IMG/VR virus record: IMGVR_UViG_2703718872_000005
Strand: one strand, 5' to 3'
Source: a virus
Taxonomy: Duplodnaviria; Heunggongvirae; Uroviricota; Caudoviricetes
Length of the DNA stretch: 15,515 nt
Positions within the stretch are counted from its first letter, which is position 1. The number at the start of each line of letters is the position of its first letter. This document shows positions 6,001 to 12,000 of this stretch, piece after piece. A program made the position numbers.

Positions 6001-9000
6001 CTTCAGCCTCTTCTGCCCGCCGTTTCAGGAGGGCAAGATGCTCAATACGCTGCAGCGCAGACAGCTCAGAAAGCGTGACAGACACACCGTTATATTCAAA
6101 TTGTTCTGTTTTCAGAAACATGCTTTATCACTCCCTCAGCTTAACCCGCTGCACCATCCGTGACGGTAATTTCCGCCACCGCCGCAAACTCACCATTGCC
6201 GGTGACCACAGGGATCTGTGCTTTACCTGCCGCAACACCTTTCACCGTGATCGTGTTCCCCTTCACGGTAATGGTGGCGAAATTCTGATTCGCCGACGTG
6301 GCACGGAAGGTTTTATCCGTCGCGCCTTCCGGCTGAACGGCCACGGTCAGGGTGATATTCTGACCTTTTGCCACATTGCCCGTTGGTGGCGTCACGGTAA
6401 TACCGGTGACCGGTGTGATGTCCCCCTGATCTTCCGCCAGCGACGGACGACCGATATTGGTGATTTTTACCGTACGGGTGATCACCTCTTTGGCGGTCAC
6501 CGCTTTACCAATGGCGCTCACCCAGCCACGGAACACATCCACCGTACCGTTCGGGAAGCGAATTTTGTAGGCCCGGGTCTCACTGCTGTCAAACCAGGCA
6601 ATCAAATCGCGCTGCCCTTTCTCACCCGGCTTCCAGGCCAGCGTAAAACTGGTGTCACCGGCAGATTTCTGCCCCTGCCCGGTGGATACCCAGTCAGCAT
6701 CCTCATCATCCAGATAGTTATCATCGTAGGATTCCGCCGTCATCTCGCCGGGGGTCAGATCCTTCACCTTCGCCAGTCGCTGCCAGTCATCGTCTGACAA
6801 CGGGTTTGCATAAGCATCACCAGTGCCGGTGTACACCCACAGTGTGGTACCGGAACCTTTCACCGGCTCAAGAGGATTTGGTGTTGCCATATCGTCCTCA
6901 CATCTCGTAGGTAATTTTCCACAGGAGATCTGCCGATCCCCACATCATAAACTCATCATCCCGGCGGTAGTCATACCCCTGAAGATTCATCTTCAGCAGT
7001 AATGCACTGAGCCCGGGAACTGCCTCCAGCGCAGGAAGAATTTTTTCTTCCATCCACATATCCAGTGCCGAGTCCGGTTCTTTTGCCCTGAGAAAAACCT
7101 CAATATGCAGTGTCGCCTCCCAGGTTCCCTCATCAACGAACTCGTCAGCAGCAGACGCATCTGTCAGGTAAACAGCAACAGCAGGCAGTTCCTGTTCATC
7201 AATAAAAACCGGGCGACCGTCAAACCAGCTCACCCTCTCAGAAATATTTTCTTTCAGGGCAGACAGAACTGCCGCCCGTATTTCACGGTGTTTCATACAC
7301 CCTCCCAGTCATTTTCTTTTCAGCACCAGGCGTAACTGATGCGTCATGGCTTTCATCATCTGCGCCGGTAATTTTTCCCGGTACATCCGGTCCCGTTCAC
7401 GTTCAAAGGTTTCTGCCAGCGGTCCGGCAGTCGGAATCTTCACCACTTCGATCGGCAGACGGTGGCGTTTCGGCCTCCCTTTGCTGTCAGCGCCGGTGGA
7501 CGATGATGCCCACGGCATACGCTGCATCACATGCCAGCGTCCGTTAGCCAGCCGGGTGATAAAGGCATCCGGGATCCGTCTTTTCCCCACAATCAGCACG
7601 CTGCCACCGCCTTTCGTGACCGAACGCTCGCCTTTCTTTCGTCGCTTTCTGCGGGAAAGCAGCACGCTGGCCGTCCCCAGTTTTATGGCGGGCAGATTAC
7701 CGGTGTTGATGATGACCTTCGCATAAACCCTGTCTGCGCTGGCCCGTTGCAGGCGGATACGCTCACGGATGAGACGGCGCGGAACCGCCAGCTCCCTGGC
7801 AACCGAAGAGGCCGTTTTCGCGATGATGGACTCCGCCACACGGTTAAGTGTCGTGGCGGCAGCCCGGGGAACGGCACGGCGGTCAATTGCATCCAGATTT
7901 TTCATGGCCTGCGCCAGACCTTTTATTGCCATACTCATTCCTGTTCGACAAAAATCCGGGGTTTACCGTTGTACGTGTCATAACGGGTCACCGTCAGTGT
8001 GCGCCCCGCAAACACAACAACATCATGACGGGCCGGACGGTACCGGGCTGAAAACACCACCAGTGACAACTGGCTGCCCGAAAGCGCCCCCATCTCCGCG
8101 GACTCTTCCTCCGGCATCACGTCGTACACGACGCCGTTAATCTCCGCCTGTTTGCCCATCATCCGAACGGTCGCCACGTCCATCCGGCAACACATTCGCG
8201 TAAACAGATCAGACATTGATTTTTACCGCCACAGCGGCGCTGTTTGCAGGAGCATTTTCCCAGGCTACTCCCGCTGCCACCGCACCGTCTGCAGCCAGCT
8301 GCACAACCCCGTCCTTCAGATAAACCACCGCGCCGGACTGAATGTCGTCAGCAGACTGTTTGGGCAGCAGGAACACGCCTTCGGCAAAACCGTCACCGGC
8401 CTCACCGGCAGGAATATCGGTAATGGCCACGGCCACCATACTGCCGACCACCACCGCAGCACCGCTCAGGATGGTCTGATCTCCGGCATTCACCAGTTCA
8501 ATGGTGGTACCGTCCTGTACAAAATTTTTCGCCATAATGCTGTTTCTCCGGACAGCCCCTGTGGGGCTGTTTTTCAGGCATAAAAAAAGCCCTTTCGGGC
8601 AGTGATTGTGATAACGCGGTTATCAGGCCACCGACGAACGCACCAGCCCGCGCCAGTCAAGTGGTGCCACTCCGGCATCAATACGGATTTTTGTGGCAAT
8701 ACCGTCAGTGGTGAAACCTTCCTGCTGATCAATGTATGGCGTGTCCACACCATCCAGCCAGGCCACTTCAATGGTGTCAGTGCCCTGTGCCGCCGCCAGA
8801 TACCAGGTTTTCGGATCTGCCGCATCAAGACGCGCTTCTGCAATCACCTCAGCAAAGTTCTGGATGGGGTTAATGACACCGGCGTTTGCATCCGCCCCTT
8901 TCACACTGGCCGATTTGATGGTCTGGTTCGCCACCGTCTCCAGTGCCACCGGTACCAGCATAAAGGCCGGACGGATATTCAGGGCGCGATCGCCTTCTTT

Positions 9001-12000
9001 CTGCAGGCGCATCATCTGACGGGCCGCATCCAGTCCGGAAACGGAGATCCCCCCGGTGGCAATATTTTTGTGATCGGCATGGAACAGCGCCTTACCGTCA
9101 GACAGTTTCGGGTTATCCGTCAGCACCTTGTAAACCAGGTCACCAATCGTTGCCTTCGCCGCACGCCCCATCTTCATCGGCACGTCCACCAGCATATTCA
9201 GATCATCATTGATAATGGCCTGGCGGGTGATGGAGAAAATCTCCCCGTAGGTGGCCAGAGCAATGGTCTCCTTGCGATCTGAGGTGGTGATGTATTTATA
9301 CTCCGCCCCCTCACGAACCTGGCGCAGAGAACCAAAACCGCCCATCCCCACGCGATACGCTGTTTTGAAGTCTGACAGGCGTCCCTTACGGGTCCACTTC
9401 TGGAAGGTTTCTTCTGATTCCTCCCAGCCCTGGATCAGCCCCTTGTTCGACACATCCAGCAGAATATTGCCAAAATCAGAGGTGCTGTGCGTCAGCGCCA
9501 GCCCGACCATCTGCATGGGGTTATAACTGGCCACCCCAATACCGCGCTCCGTCAGTGACATACGAGCCCATTCACGCAGGGTCATCCCGTTATAGGCGTT
9601 ATCCTTCTCGACATTTTCAAATCCGGCACGGGCCAGCATAGCCTGGCGGATCCCGTCTCCCACAAAATTGCCGTTTCCGGCATAAATATGGGCCGGTGTG
9701 TTTTTGTTGGTCGGCGATGACTCCTTGCCCATTTCATTCAGAAGGCGCTCGCGGGCCATTTCCAGCGAACAGTCAGGATCGGCCACACACTGCGCCTGAA
9801 GCGCCTGATAGCGACCGCCAAACATGGCAAACAGATCGTTAATGCCTGACATGCGGGCTTTCTGCTCAGCCATAACGCGGGCGCGAATGGTCGCCTCATC
9901 AGACACTGCCGGTACCGGTGATGGTTCTGTTACCGCCGGTGCAGGGATTGTCACTGTGGTATCACGCGGGGCACTGTTGCGTGGCGGAGTAATCATGTTT
10001 CGGATGGATTCCGGCATCTTTTTAAATTCCTCTGTACGTTTTGACTGAATACATGCCATTGCCTCAACAGCGGGTGTCACCTGGTCAGCAAATCCGTGTG
10101 CCAGACATTCGGCACCGGACATCCAGGTTTCATCCGCCAGCATGGCGGCAATTTCATCGGTGGTTTTTCCGGTTTTCTGCGCATAGGCTGGCAACAGTAC
10201 CGATTCGACTTTATCCAGCAAATCGGCATAACTGCGCATATCCTCAGCATCCCCGCCACTGAATCCCCATGGCTTATGGATCATCATGAAGGCATTTTCC
10301 GGCATAATGACCGTATCACCGGCCATCGCAATCACAGATGCCATCGAGGCGGCAACGCCATCCACATACACGGTAATGGTCGCCCCCTGATTTTTCAGGG
10401 CATTAAAAATGGCGATGCCTTCAAAGACATCGCCACCCGGTGAATTGATATGGAGATTAATGTGGGTGATATCACCCAGTGCATTCAGTTCGCTGACAAA
10501 CTGCTTCGCGGTAACTCCCCAGAAACCAATCTCGTCATAAATATAAATATCCGCGTCACCCGGCCCCCCAGTCTGCATCCTGAACCAGGATTTATTCTTC
10601 ATGCTGGCTTTCGGTGTCGCGCTGATACTGTCGTTCAGTTCCGGCACTGTTGCCTCCTTTGTCGTTGACGGGGTCAGTATCAAAGACCAGCCCCAGTCTG
10701 CTGTTTTCATCAATTTCAGCCTTGCGGCGACGTTTGACCTCATCCGGATTGCGCCCGCCGGCACGCACCCAGTCAGATTCTGTCGCTGCACCACCCCGGA
10801 TCTGAATTCTCCAAGCTTCAGCTTCCTTAACCGGGTCGATCCACGGCATCACCGGACCGGAATACGTCGCGTTATATAGCGTTTTCATCTCCACATCCGC
10901 CGGAATTTTCAGCAGACCTGCCGCAACCACCATATTCAGCCATGTCCGGTACACCGGGCGGGTTACCGCGCCAATAAAACAGTCCTGCAGGATCAGGTAA
11001 CCATCCGTGGACTCGACCAGCTCCTGCCGCTGGGCGCTGTAGGTGCCGTTATAGTTACGCGCCGCACTGGAAAAACTCAGACGACTGCCTGCTGCCACTG
11101 CACGCAACTGGCCGTTGCGGAAAGTTTCAAGATTGGGATTGGGACGGTCAGATTTGACCATGCCGATATCCTCGCCCTTGCGCAAATCGTCATAAATAAT
11201 ACCCGGGGTGATATGGACTTCCCGCTCGGTTTCTTTGATCCCCGGATCTTCATAGTCCTGTCCGTCACCTTTACGGATATACAGTCCCAGCGCCGCAGCA
11301 ATACGCGCCGCTGTCAGTTCCGCATCCTCATACTCCTTAAGGGCACTGATCCGCATCAGCACCCCCGATAACATGGATGAGCCTCGCGTCTGATGCAGAC
11401 GACGAGTGAACTTCAGGTGGATCATTTTTCCGGCAGCGATTTCTTTCGTATCACTCTGCCGACCGCTGACCGGATAATTTTTATAAACCAGATATTTTTT
11501 CGGTCTTCCCCACTCATCAAGAAAAACCCCCTGATTCAGTCCGGCGGATTCATCTGTGCGCATGGGAACAAAATCCGGCTCCATCGCCTCAAGCCAGAAT
11601 GGCACTCCCGCCGTCCGTTCCAGACCGTTTCCCGCACCACTGACCATCTGCGCAAACACTTCACCATCCCGCAGCCAGGTCCGCAGCAGTAAACGTTCAA
11701 GCACAGGACGGGTATACTGCCCTGTCACATCCGGACTCACGGACCATTCAGCCCACAAACGGCGGATATCCGCAGCCAGCTCAGCCGCCATTTCCCCGTT
11801 TTTTCGTAATGGCTGAGGCTCCACAATAATTCCCCTGGCACCAATCACCCGCTCTTCCAGCTTGTCAAACACACCAATCACCAGGTCATGATTGATATCA
11901 AGAAAACGGGCCTGCTCCCGCAGGGAAACCGCACCGTATTTACTGAGCTGATCGGCAGAGCGATTTTCCCGCCGGGCTTTATGTGTCCGGGTCGGTTTCA

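Follow-up and report, generated by a model that had tools for sequence, protein, structure and literature searches.

The capsid gene of the Salmonella phage Gifsy-2, a known counterpart of the gene considered here, was reportedly characterised by Effantin et al. 2010 as the succession of a ClpP-like protease, a putative scaffold of ~200 residues and a capsid protein, and the capsids of this phage are said to have been modelled on HK97 gp5 and lambda gpD. Papers citing the Gifsy-2 literature describe its protease and coat protein genes as fused. Here, we analysed a 15,515-nucleotide stretch of viral DNA (IMG/VR record IMGVR_UViG_2703718872_000005, Caudoviricetes; hereafter the window), which is the head-tail module of a lambdoid Escherichia coli prophage, and focused on a gene of its minus strand (8623..10647, 674 amino acids, aa) that joins a ClpP-like prohead protease, a scaffold-like segment and a major capsid protein. 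With a probability of about 0.93, we read it as the gene for the head shell in a lambdoid E. coli prophage of the Stx-phage/Gifsy-2 type; its single precursor, composed of protease, tether, scaffold-like segment and capsid protein, would then undergo maturation. Such a fusion gene is already known: the Gifsy-2 architecture is published, a curated NCBIfam model covers it and the exact protein is named in RefSeq.

A single intact gene for protease and capsid protein

On the minus strand, the frame of the fusion gene is open without interruption from position 10794 down to its stop codon (8623-8625), the gene is free of Ns, and its translation contains both GVAASMASV and MMIHKPWG, the ClpP-type motifs from which a sequence-only reading of the same DNA had placed a serine protease in the N-terminal part. 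Translation of 8623-10602 on the plus strand produced no open frame and many stops. That reading had proposed one open reading frame (ORF) over 8623-10602 with neither stop nor frameshift between the domains, and this continuity is confirmed by the minus-strand translation. The interval itself also stands, as it corresponds to the 659-aa product opened by the ATG at 10602 and to the RefSeq coding sequence (CDS, 1980 nt) annotated for the orthologue in E. coli NZ_CP075632 under the name 'ClpP-like prohead protease/major capsid protein fusion protein'; the strand is the minus one, and the start has to be revised, probably to the GTG at 10647 discussed below. Residues are hereafter numbered on the 674-aa form, counted from this GTG, and segment borders were placed with a conservation profile over 66 diverse full-length homologues together with Pfam.

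Behind a variable leader (residues 1-30), the protease domain occupies residues 31-195 (10063..10557, minus strand), a region well conserved in the 66-homologue profile. It is recognised by Pfam CLP_protease (residues 46-191, 1.7e-36) and by NF045542, 'head maturation protease, ClpP-related' (224.4 bits against a cutoff of 120), and it matches the solved ClpP 6hwm (2.9e-18) with the catalytic Ser and His aligned. These correspond to Ser101 (codon 10345-10347, minus strand) and His124 (codon 10276-10278, minus strand), while the column of the catalytic Asp of ClpP is occupied by Glu173, within an 'ETW' motif (codon 10129-10131, minus strand). Five diverse, stand-alone ClpP-like head proteases, from phages of Pseudomonas, Staphylococcus, Mycobacterium and Lactococcus, all carry this Ser, His and Glu. 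Among 132 full-length fusions taken from different 50%-identity clusters, the catalytic Ser and His are present without exception and the acid column holds 109 Glu, 17 Asp and 6 other residues, with the residue before it varying freely.

The protein thus displays the Ser and His of the Ser-His-Asp triad of cellular ClpP (S14), with Glu in the Asp column, and it stays below the ClpP equivalog cutoffs (TIGR00493, 61.5 against 308.6 bits; NF001368, 82.6 against 249). Because the TIGR00493 score lies far under its cutoff and Glu stands at the Asp column, the domain is, on these sequence comparisons, ClpP-related and not a ClpP orthologue. Peptidase_S49, the type of lambda gpC, was rejected as a candidate, with no Peptidase_S49 match in Pfam and only 27.2 bits against a cutoff of 155 on TIGR00706 SppA_dom; of the two families that had been considered for the protease, CLP_protease was therefore retained and Peptidase_S49 dropped.

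The protease is followed by a Pro-rich linker (residues 196-255; 9883..10062, minus strand), poorly conserved and rich in indels, which shows the lowest column information of the 66-sequence alignment (0.8-1.5 bits) and, at residues 226-240, ~11 inserted residues per sequence; it also stands out as a variable block when homologues are aligned. Next lies a moderately conserved helical segment (residues 256-330; 9658..9882, minus strand), whose helices are the only region exceeding a predicted local distance difference test (pLDDT) score of 64 in the full-length AlphaFold model (mean 35.4), a model built on an 18-sequence alignment in which every sequence is at least 76% identical, and left out of the fold search. 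In the model of the C-terminal part, a helix at 296-307 precedes a low-pLDDT stretch, and the C-terminal end of the middle segment (about 305-324) is accordingly modelled as flexible. From its position and from the Gifsy-2 literature, we infer that this middle segment serves as an internal scaffold and so corresponds to the HK97 delta domain or to lambda Nu3.

The remainder of the polypeptide (residues about 331-674; 8626..9657, minus strand) is the major capsid protein, highly conserved in the 66-homologue profile. Pfam Phage_capsid_4 matches residues 384-671 (1e-55), Mu-like_gpT was matched as well, and the C-terminal 290-340 aa match solved Mu-type capsids. An AlphaFold model of the C-terminal 380 aa (pLDDT 88), resting on a diverse 70-sequence alignment, matches HK97, Mu and many other solved capsids in its fold, so that the C-terminal domain has, as modelled, the HK97 fold. 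The capsid-sized domain that had been suspected from its length is hence a major capsid protein by both profile and structure matches, and its comparison against HK97-fold capsids returned a capsid fold.

Over its entire length, the protein belongs to the family of NCBIfam NF045540, which bears the very name of the RefSeq orthologue (1004.6 bits against a cutoff of 475, model positions 2-651 of 652), and it matches phrog_133 full-length with 1152 bits; the Gifsy-2 product reaches 949.6 bits on NF045540. Domain, profile and fold searches together thereby bear out the proposal of one polypeptide comprising a ClpP-type prohead protease and a major capsid protein. A pattern-based genome scan recovered full-length homologues in 40-odd species-representative genomes; Salmonella LT2 was not among its matches, and Gifsy-2 was compared through NC_010393. 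Full-length fusions with 48-78% identity were found in prophages of Klebsiella, Yokenella, Buttiauxella, Rahnella, Erwinia, Sodalis, Morganella, Providencia, Pantoea, Psychromonas and Spongiibacter, and another, with 57% identity, in a Pseudomonas phage. At a larger scale, an exhaustive search of 1.84 billion cluster representatives (50% identity) gave 8,233 matches at E<=1e-30, and 132 of the best 149 representatives are full-length fusions (median length 680 aa). The fusion of protease and capsid protein is neither chance nor artefact.

Its surroundings are those of a head gene, directly after the portal gene and before a decoration gene. The lambda-family portal protein (10592..12094, minus strand; Pfam Phage_portal_2, 2.8e-80; RefSeq 'phage portal protein') is encoded by a gene whose 3' end runs into the fusion gene, with an overlap of 56 nt for the GTG start or 11 nt for the ATG start. 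On the other side, a 108-aa head-decoration (cement) protein (8209..8535, minus strand), the functional counterpart of lambda gpD, is identified by Pfam Phage_cement_2 (2.7e-18) and phrog_122 'head decoration' (1.3e-38) and is 53% identical to Gifsy-2 STM1034, which holds the same position; a PDB search with its single sequence gave nothing significant. In 36 of 44 related loci, a decoration homologue follows the fusion at a distance of about 90-100 nt; the loci of a Pseudomonas phage and of the type-2 Ralstonia phage YO135_4 are among them. ORF, Pfam and RefSeq annotation of the window revealed no other capsid-sized ORF between the portal and the tail genes. The fusion had been thought to take the place of lambda C, Nu3, D and E; because a separate decoration gene is present, it stands in for C, Nu3 and E only.

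The start codon deserves separate consideration. The in-frame GTG at 10647, 15 codons upstream of the ATG at 10602, is preceded at a 5-nt spacing by AAAGGAGG, forming the sole strong Shine-Dalgarno/start pair in the gene and giving 674 aa. In the alignment, 'MP...RPKAS' opens most homologues 15 codons ahead of the annotated ATG, and in many of them the place of the annotated Met is taken by Ala, Pro, Val or Leu. The AAAGGAGGCAnCA-GTG-CCG context is kept in 11 of 12 loci from other genera, a conservation to which the coding of the portal C-terminus by the same stretch also contributes, and Gifsy-2 displays ATG-CCG at the position aligned with GTG-CCG. Database calls for the identical gene are divided, with the 674-aa form on at least 999 contigs and the 659-aa form on 247. 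Taken together, these observations point to the GTG at 10647, rather than the ATG at 10602, as the probable true start, and since this GTG with its AAAGGAGG is conserved across genera, the 659-aa call is probably an N-terminal truncation.

Proposed maturation and alternative explanations

Several features are directly observed: the frame is intact, both end domains are identified together with the catalytic residues and the fold, synteny is conserved and the protein belongs to a known family. Starting from these, head assembly may be envisioned as follows. A single 674-aa precursor would be translated, probably from the GTG at 10647, with a ClpP-fold serine protease (Ser101-His124-Glu173) in front, then a variable Pro-rich tether and a helical scaffold-like segment, and finally the HK97-fold capsid protein. 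If assembly proceeds as in Gifsy-2 and HK97, precursors would come together on the portal to build a T=7 procapsid whose interior holds the tethered protease and scaffold parts. Everything N-terminal to the capsid domain would then be cut off by the protease, the shell would expand during DNA packaging, and trimers of the decoration protein (8209-8535) would bind the shell at 3-fold positions and stabilise it. Scaffold role, cleavage with its site or sites, T=7 geometry and trimeric decoration are all proposed here on the model of related phages. The self-processing maturation that had been deduced from the fused arrangement is implied in the same way, and it agrees with the published Gifsy-2 precedent.

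Several points weigh against this scheme. In the alignments to solved ClpP, the acidic residue of the triad is Glu173 where canonical ClpP has Asp. The cleavage itself is proposed by analogy with Gifsy-2. Lastly, the tape-measure gene of the window (about 2903-5287) carries an in-frame TAG (3677-3679, minus strand), so that this prophage copy may never give infectious particles; in RefSeq, the tape-measure orthologue of NZ_CP075632 is classed as a pseudogene ('internal stop'), and the prophage is probably tail-defective.

This last point opens the possibility that the gene, while being exactly what it appears to be, is a relic carried by a defective prophage with no role in an infectious phage, a scenario that is compatible with the head-shell reading and that we regard as possible though rather doubtful. 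It draws on the interrupted tape-measure gene and its pseudogene orthologue, and on the splitting by IS629 of the orthologous fusion gene in VT1-Sakai. On the opposite side, the fusion, portal, terminase and decoration genes are all intact, and heads could still form or the genes be rescued by recombination with the several other lambdoid prophages that each genome carries (median 3 matching places per genome). In any case, a tail-defective prophage would leave the identity of the gene unchanged.

Within the head-shell reading, a more specific proposal concerns the mode of action of the protease. The tethered Ser-His-Glu ClpP-fold protease of each shell subunit might work non-canonically inside the procapsid, either in cis or as capsomer-templated hexamers and pentamers, as opposed to ClpP-style heptamers. 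We consider this improbable; if true, it would represent a new mechanistic variant for the whole family and would not be special to this locus. Neither a high-resolution procapsid structure nor a mapped cleavage site was found in the literature for the fusion family.

It is very unlikely that the domains are made as separate proteins mainly through translation, by frameshifting or by internal initiation of the kind that yields lambda Nu3 within C, and not through proteolysis of a precursor. Nested in-frame starts are established for lambda C/Nu3, the synthesis of a stoichiometric protease on each of ~415 subunits seems wasteful, and an in-frame ATG does occur at residue 211 (position 10017 of the window). 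This ATG is preceded only by a weak GAGG at an 11-nt spacing, and the scan of in-frame starts in the fusion gene revealed no credible internal start and no other one with a Shine-Dalgarno sequence. Furthermore, the linker region is not conserved in sequence as a start site would require, and the Gifsy-2 literature describes the protease and coat protein genes as fused. Proteolytic processing of one precursor remains the route that we favour.

The names under which orthologues have been deposited ('phage protease/scaffold protein', 'head-tail preconnector protein Nu3', 'Clp protease ClpP') would suit a protein limited to protease and scaffold, analogous to lambda C/Nu3, with the major capsid protein encoded elsewhere. 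The likelihood of this is negligible: the C-terminal 290-340 aa match the Pfam capsid family, Mu-type capsids and the HK97 fold, the head module lacks another capsid-sized ORF, and RefSeq and other records already name a major capsid or fusion protein. Fold and profile evidence, with no other capsid gene, effectively refutes it. Finally, an artefact or recent accident in this genome (lost stop, sequencing or assembly error), which the two N runs elsewhere in the window and the adjacent yet separate ClpP-type protease and capsid genes of many phages, such as Staphylococcus SH-St 15644, Lactococcus bIL286 and Mycobacterium ThulaThula, might have suggested, has virtually no chance of being correct and is refuted by conservation, given the identical protein on at least 999 contigs, the fusions at 48-78% identity in many genera, the 132 fused among the best 149 divergent representatives, two curated NCBIfam fusion models and a gene without Ns; the earlier statement that the fusion does not stem from assembly is upheld.

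Neighbouring genes and prophage context

Over 97% of its length, the window matches prophages in human isolates of Shiga toxin-producing E. coli (STEC) with 99.1% identity, and genes with 98-99% identity to the fusion gene occur in VT1-Sakai, phage 1720a-02, ASU11 and several Stx2 phages. In VT1-Sakai (AP000400.1, 23239-26576), the orthologous fusion gene is split in two by IS629, and the features annotated under the match include IS629, a transposase and a 'scaffolding protein'.

Upstream of the portal gene, the minus strand encodes a small terminase (14423-14899), a terminase large subunit of the lambda gpA family (12303..14426; Pfam GpA_ATPase and GpA_nuclease, about 1e-81 to 1e-84) and a small head-tail adaptor (12094-12330). 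Downstream of the decoration gene lies a 93-aa ORF (7935-8216, minus strand) bearing conflicting names: PF13856 'ATP-binding sugar transporter from pro-phage', 'DNA breaking-rejoining protein' in RefSeq and 'minor tail protein' in PHROG, in addition to a weak Phage_attach match. Based on gene position, its product is most likely a head-tail joining protein similar to lambda FII, and the conflicting names look like legacy mis-annotations. Beyond it extend the tail genes Z, U, V, G/T, tape measure, M and onward.

The 87-nt spacer between the fusion and decoration genes (8536-8622, minus strand) folds into three hairpins, among them GCCCgaaaGGGC with U7 directly behind it and an 8-bp CAGCCCCacaGGGGCUG stem. 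Its minimum free energy is -28.1 kcal/mol, which corresponds to z = -2.9 relative to shuffles; a 4-bp stem in this spacer falls under the threshold of the terminator scan. The spacer could be a partial terminator or an RNA-stability element placed after the capsid gene. Over the fusion gene itself, the promoter and terminator scan gave one promoter-like site (1.8 expected from shuffles) and six terminator-like sites (2.4 expected).

Among the tail genes, a lambda-type slippery heptamer, G_GGA_AAG, is found at 5708-5714 (minus strand) in the zero frame, five codons before the stop (5690-5692) of the gpG homologue (5690-6121, minus strand), upstream of the gpT homologue (5259-5663). It is expected to be the -1 frameshift site of the G/GT tail chaperone. 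Two N runs, representing masked or gap sequence, are situated in the tail-gene region (1999-2039, 41 nt; 2923-2951, 29 nt); the second takes out ~10 codons close to the 3' end of the tape-measure gene, and neither touches the fusion gene.

Use for annotation and comparison with known systems

As a discovery, this locus carries little weight, and its main use is for annotation. Many phage records call the gene 'Clp protease', 'protease/scaffold' or 'Nu3' and consequently seem to have no capsid gene, and RefSeq copies are divided between the 659-aa and 674-aa starts, of which the longer GTG form is better supported. By-products of the analysis include this start-codon correction, the recognition of a separate decoration gene and the family-wide Ser-His-Glu triad. 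The family constitutes a convenient system for studying how a stoichiometric tethered protease matures a capsid, a question to which this particular locus adds nothing.

The 'tripartite capsid gene' of Gifsy-2 (STM1034.3n, NC_010393 22471-24561) encodes a product 60% identical end to end to the protein of the window, including the MPE N-terminus. It belongs to the same NF045540 family and is likewise built of ClpP-like protease, middle segment and capsid protein, in this order. Its flanks are also the same, running through TerS, TerL, small adaptor, portal, fusion, 107/108-aa decoration protein, FII-like protein, Z, U, V, G, T and H. It differs in being carried by a Salmonella phage and in encoding 696 aa from an ATG, in comparison with 674 aa from a GTG in an E. 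coli Stx-type prophage; the difference in length falls in three places, namely the N-terminal leader, the linker and the loop that precedes the capsid domain.

With cellular ClpP (MEROPS S14), the protease domain shares its fold family and the alignment of the catalytic Ser and His. In contrast to ClpP, it is covalently joined to its substrate, implies no partner ATPase and has Glu for Asp.

In HK97, as here, an HK97-fold shell protein (gp5) bears an N-terminal segment, presumed to act as an internal scaffold and to be removed in the procapsid by a phage-encoded protease (gp4 in HK97). The HK97 protease is the product of a separate gene and has an unrelated fold. Moreover, the HK97 shell is stabilised by covalent chainmail, whereas the fusion module includes a decoration-protein gene, which makes a chainmail cross-link unnecessary without excluding an HK97-type Lys-Asn cross-link here.

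The lambda head genes B, C/Nu3, D and E provide another comparison: the lambda-family portal, the gpA-type terminase, the Z/U/V/G-T/H tail genes and the separate encoding of a decoration protein are common to both. Unlike in lambda, there is no S49-type gpC in this module, and protease, scaffold and capsid form one gene as against C/Nu3 plus E; the decoration gene, of the Phage_cement_2 family, comes after the capsid gene and not before it.

A second type of fusion is represented by NF045541, 'prohead protease/major capsid protein fusion protein', with members in Ralstonia phage YO135_4 (1844-3937, 744 bits) and Pseudomonas phage Y8 (1529-3517, 773 bits); the protein of the window scores below the cutoff of this model (418 against 525). 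Both types consist of a single long ORF after the portal gene, and they are homologous in their scaffold-like and capsid parts, with 32-35% identity from about residue 200 on, whereas the N-terminal ~360 aa of the YO135_4 and Y8 proteins have no ClpP match in Pfam. Because NF045541 proteins share the scaffold and capsid parts while having a different N-terminal domain, the comparison suggests an exchange of the protease module ahead of a scaffold-capsid unit that stayed conserved.

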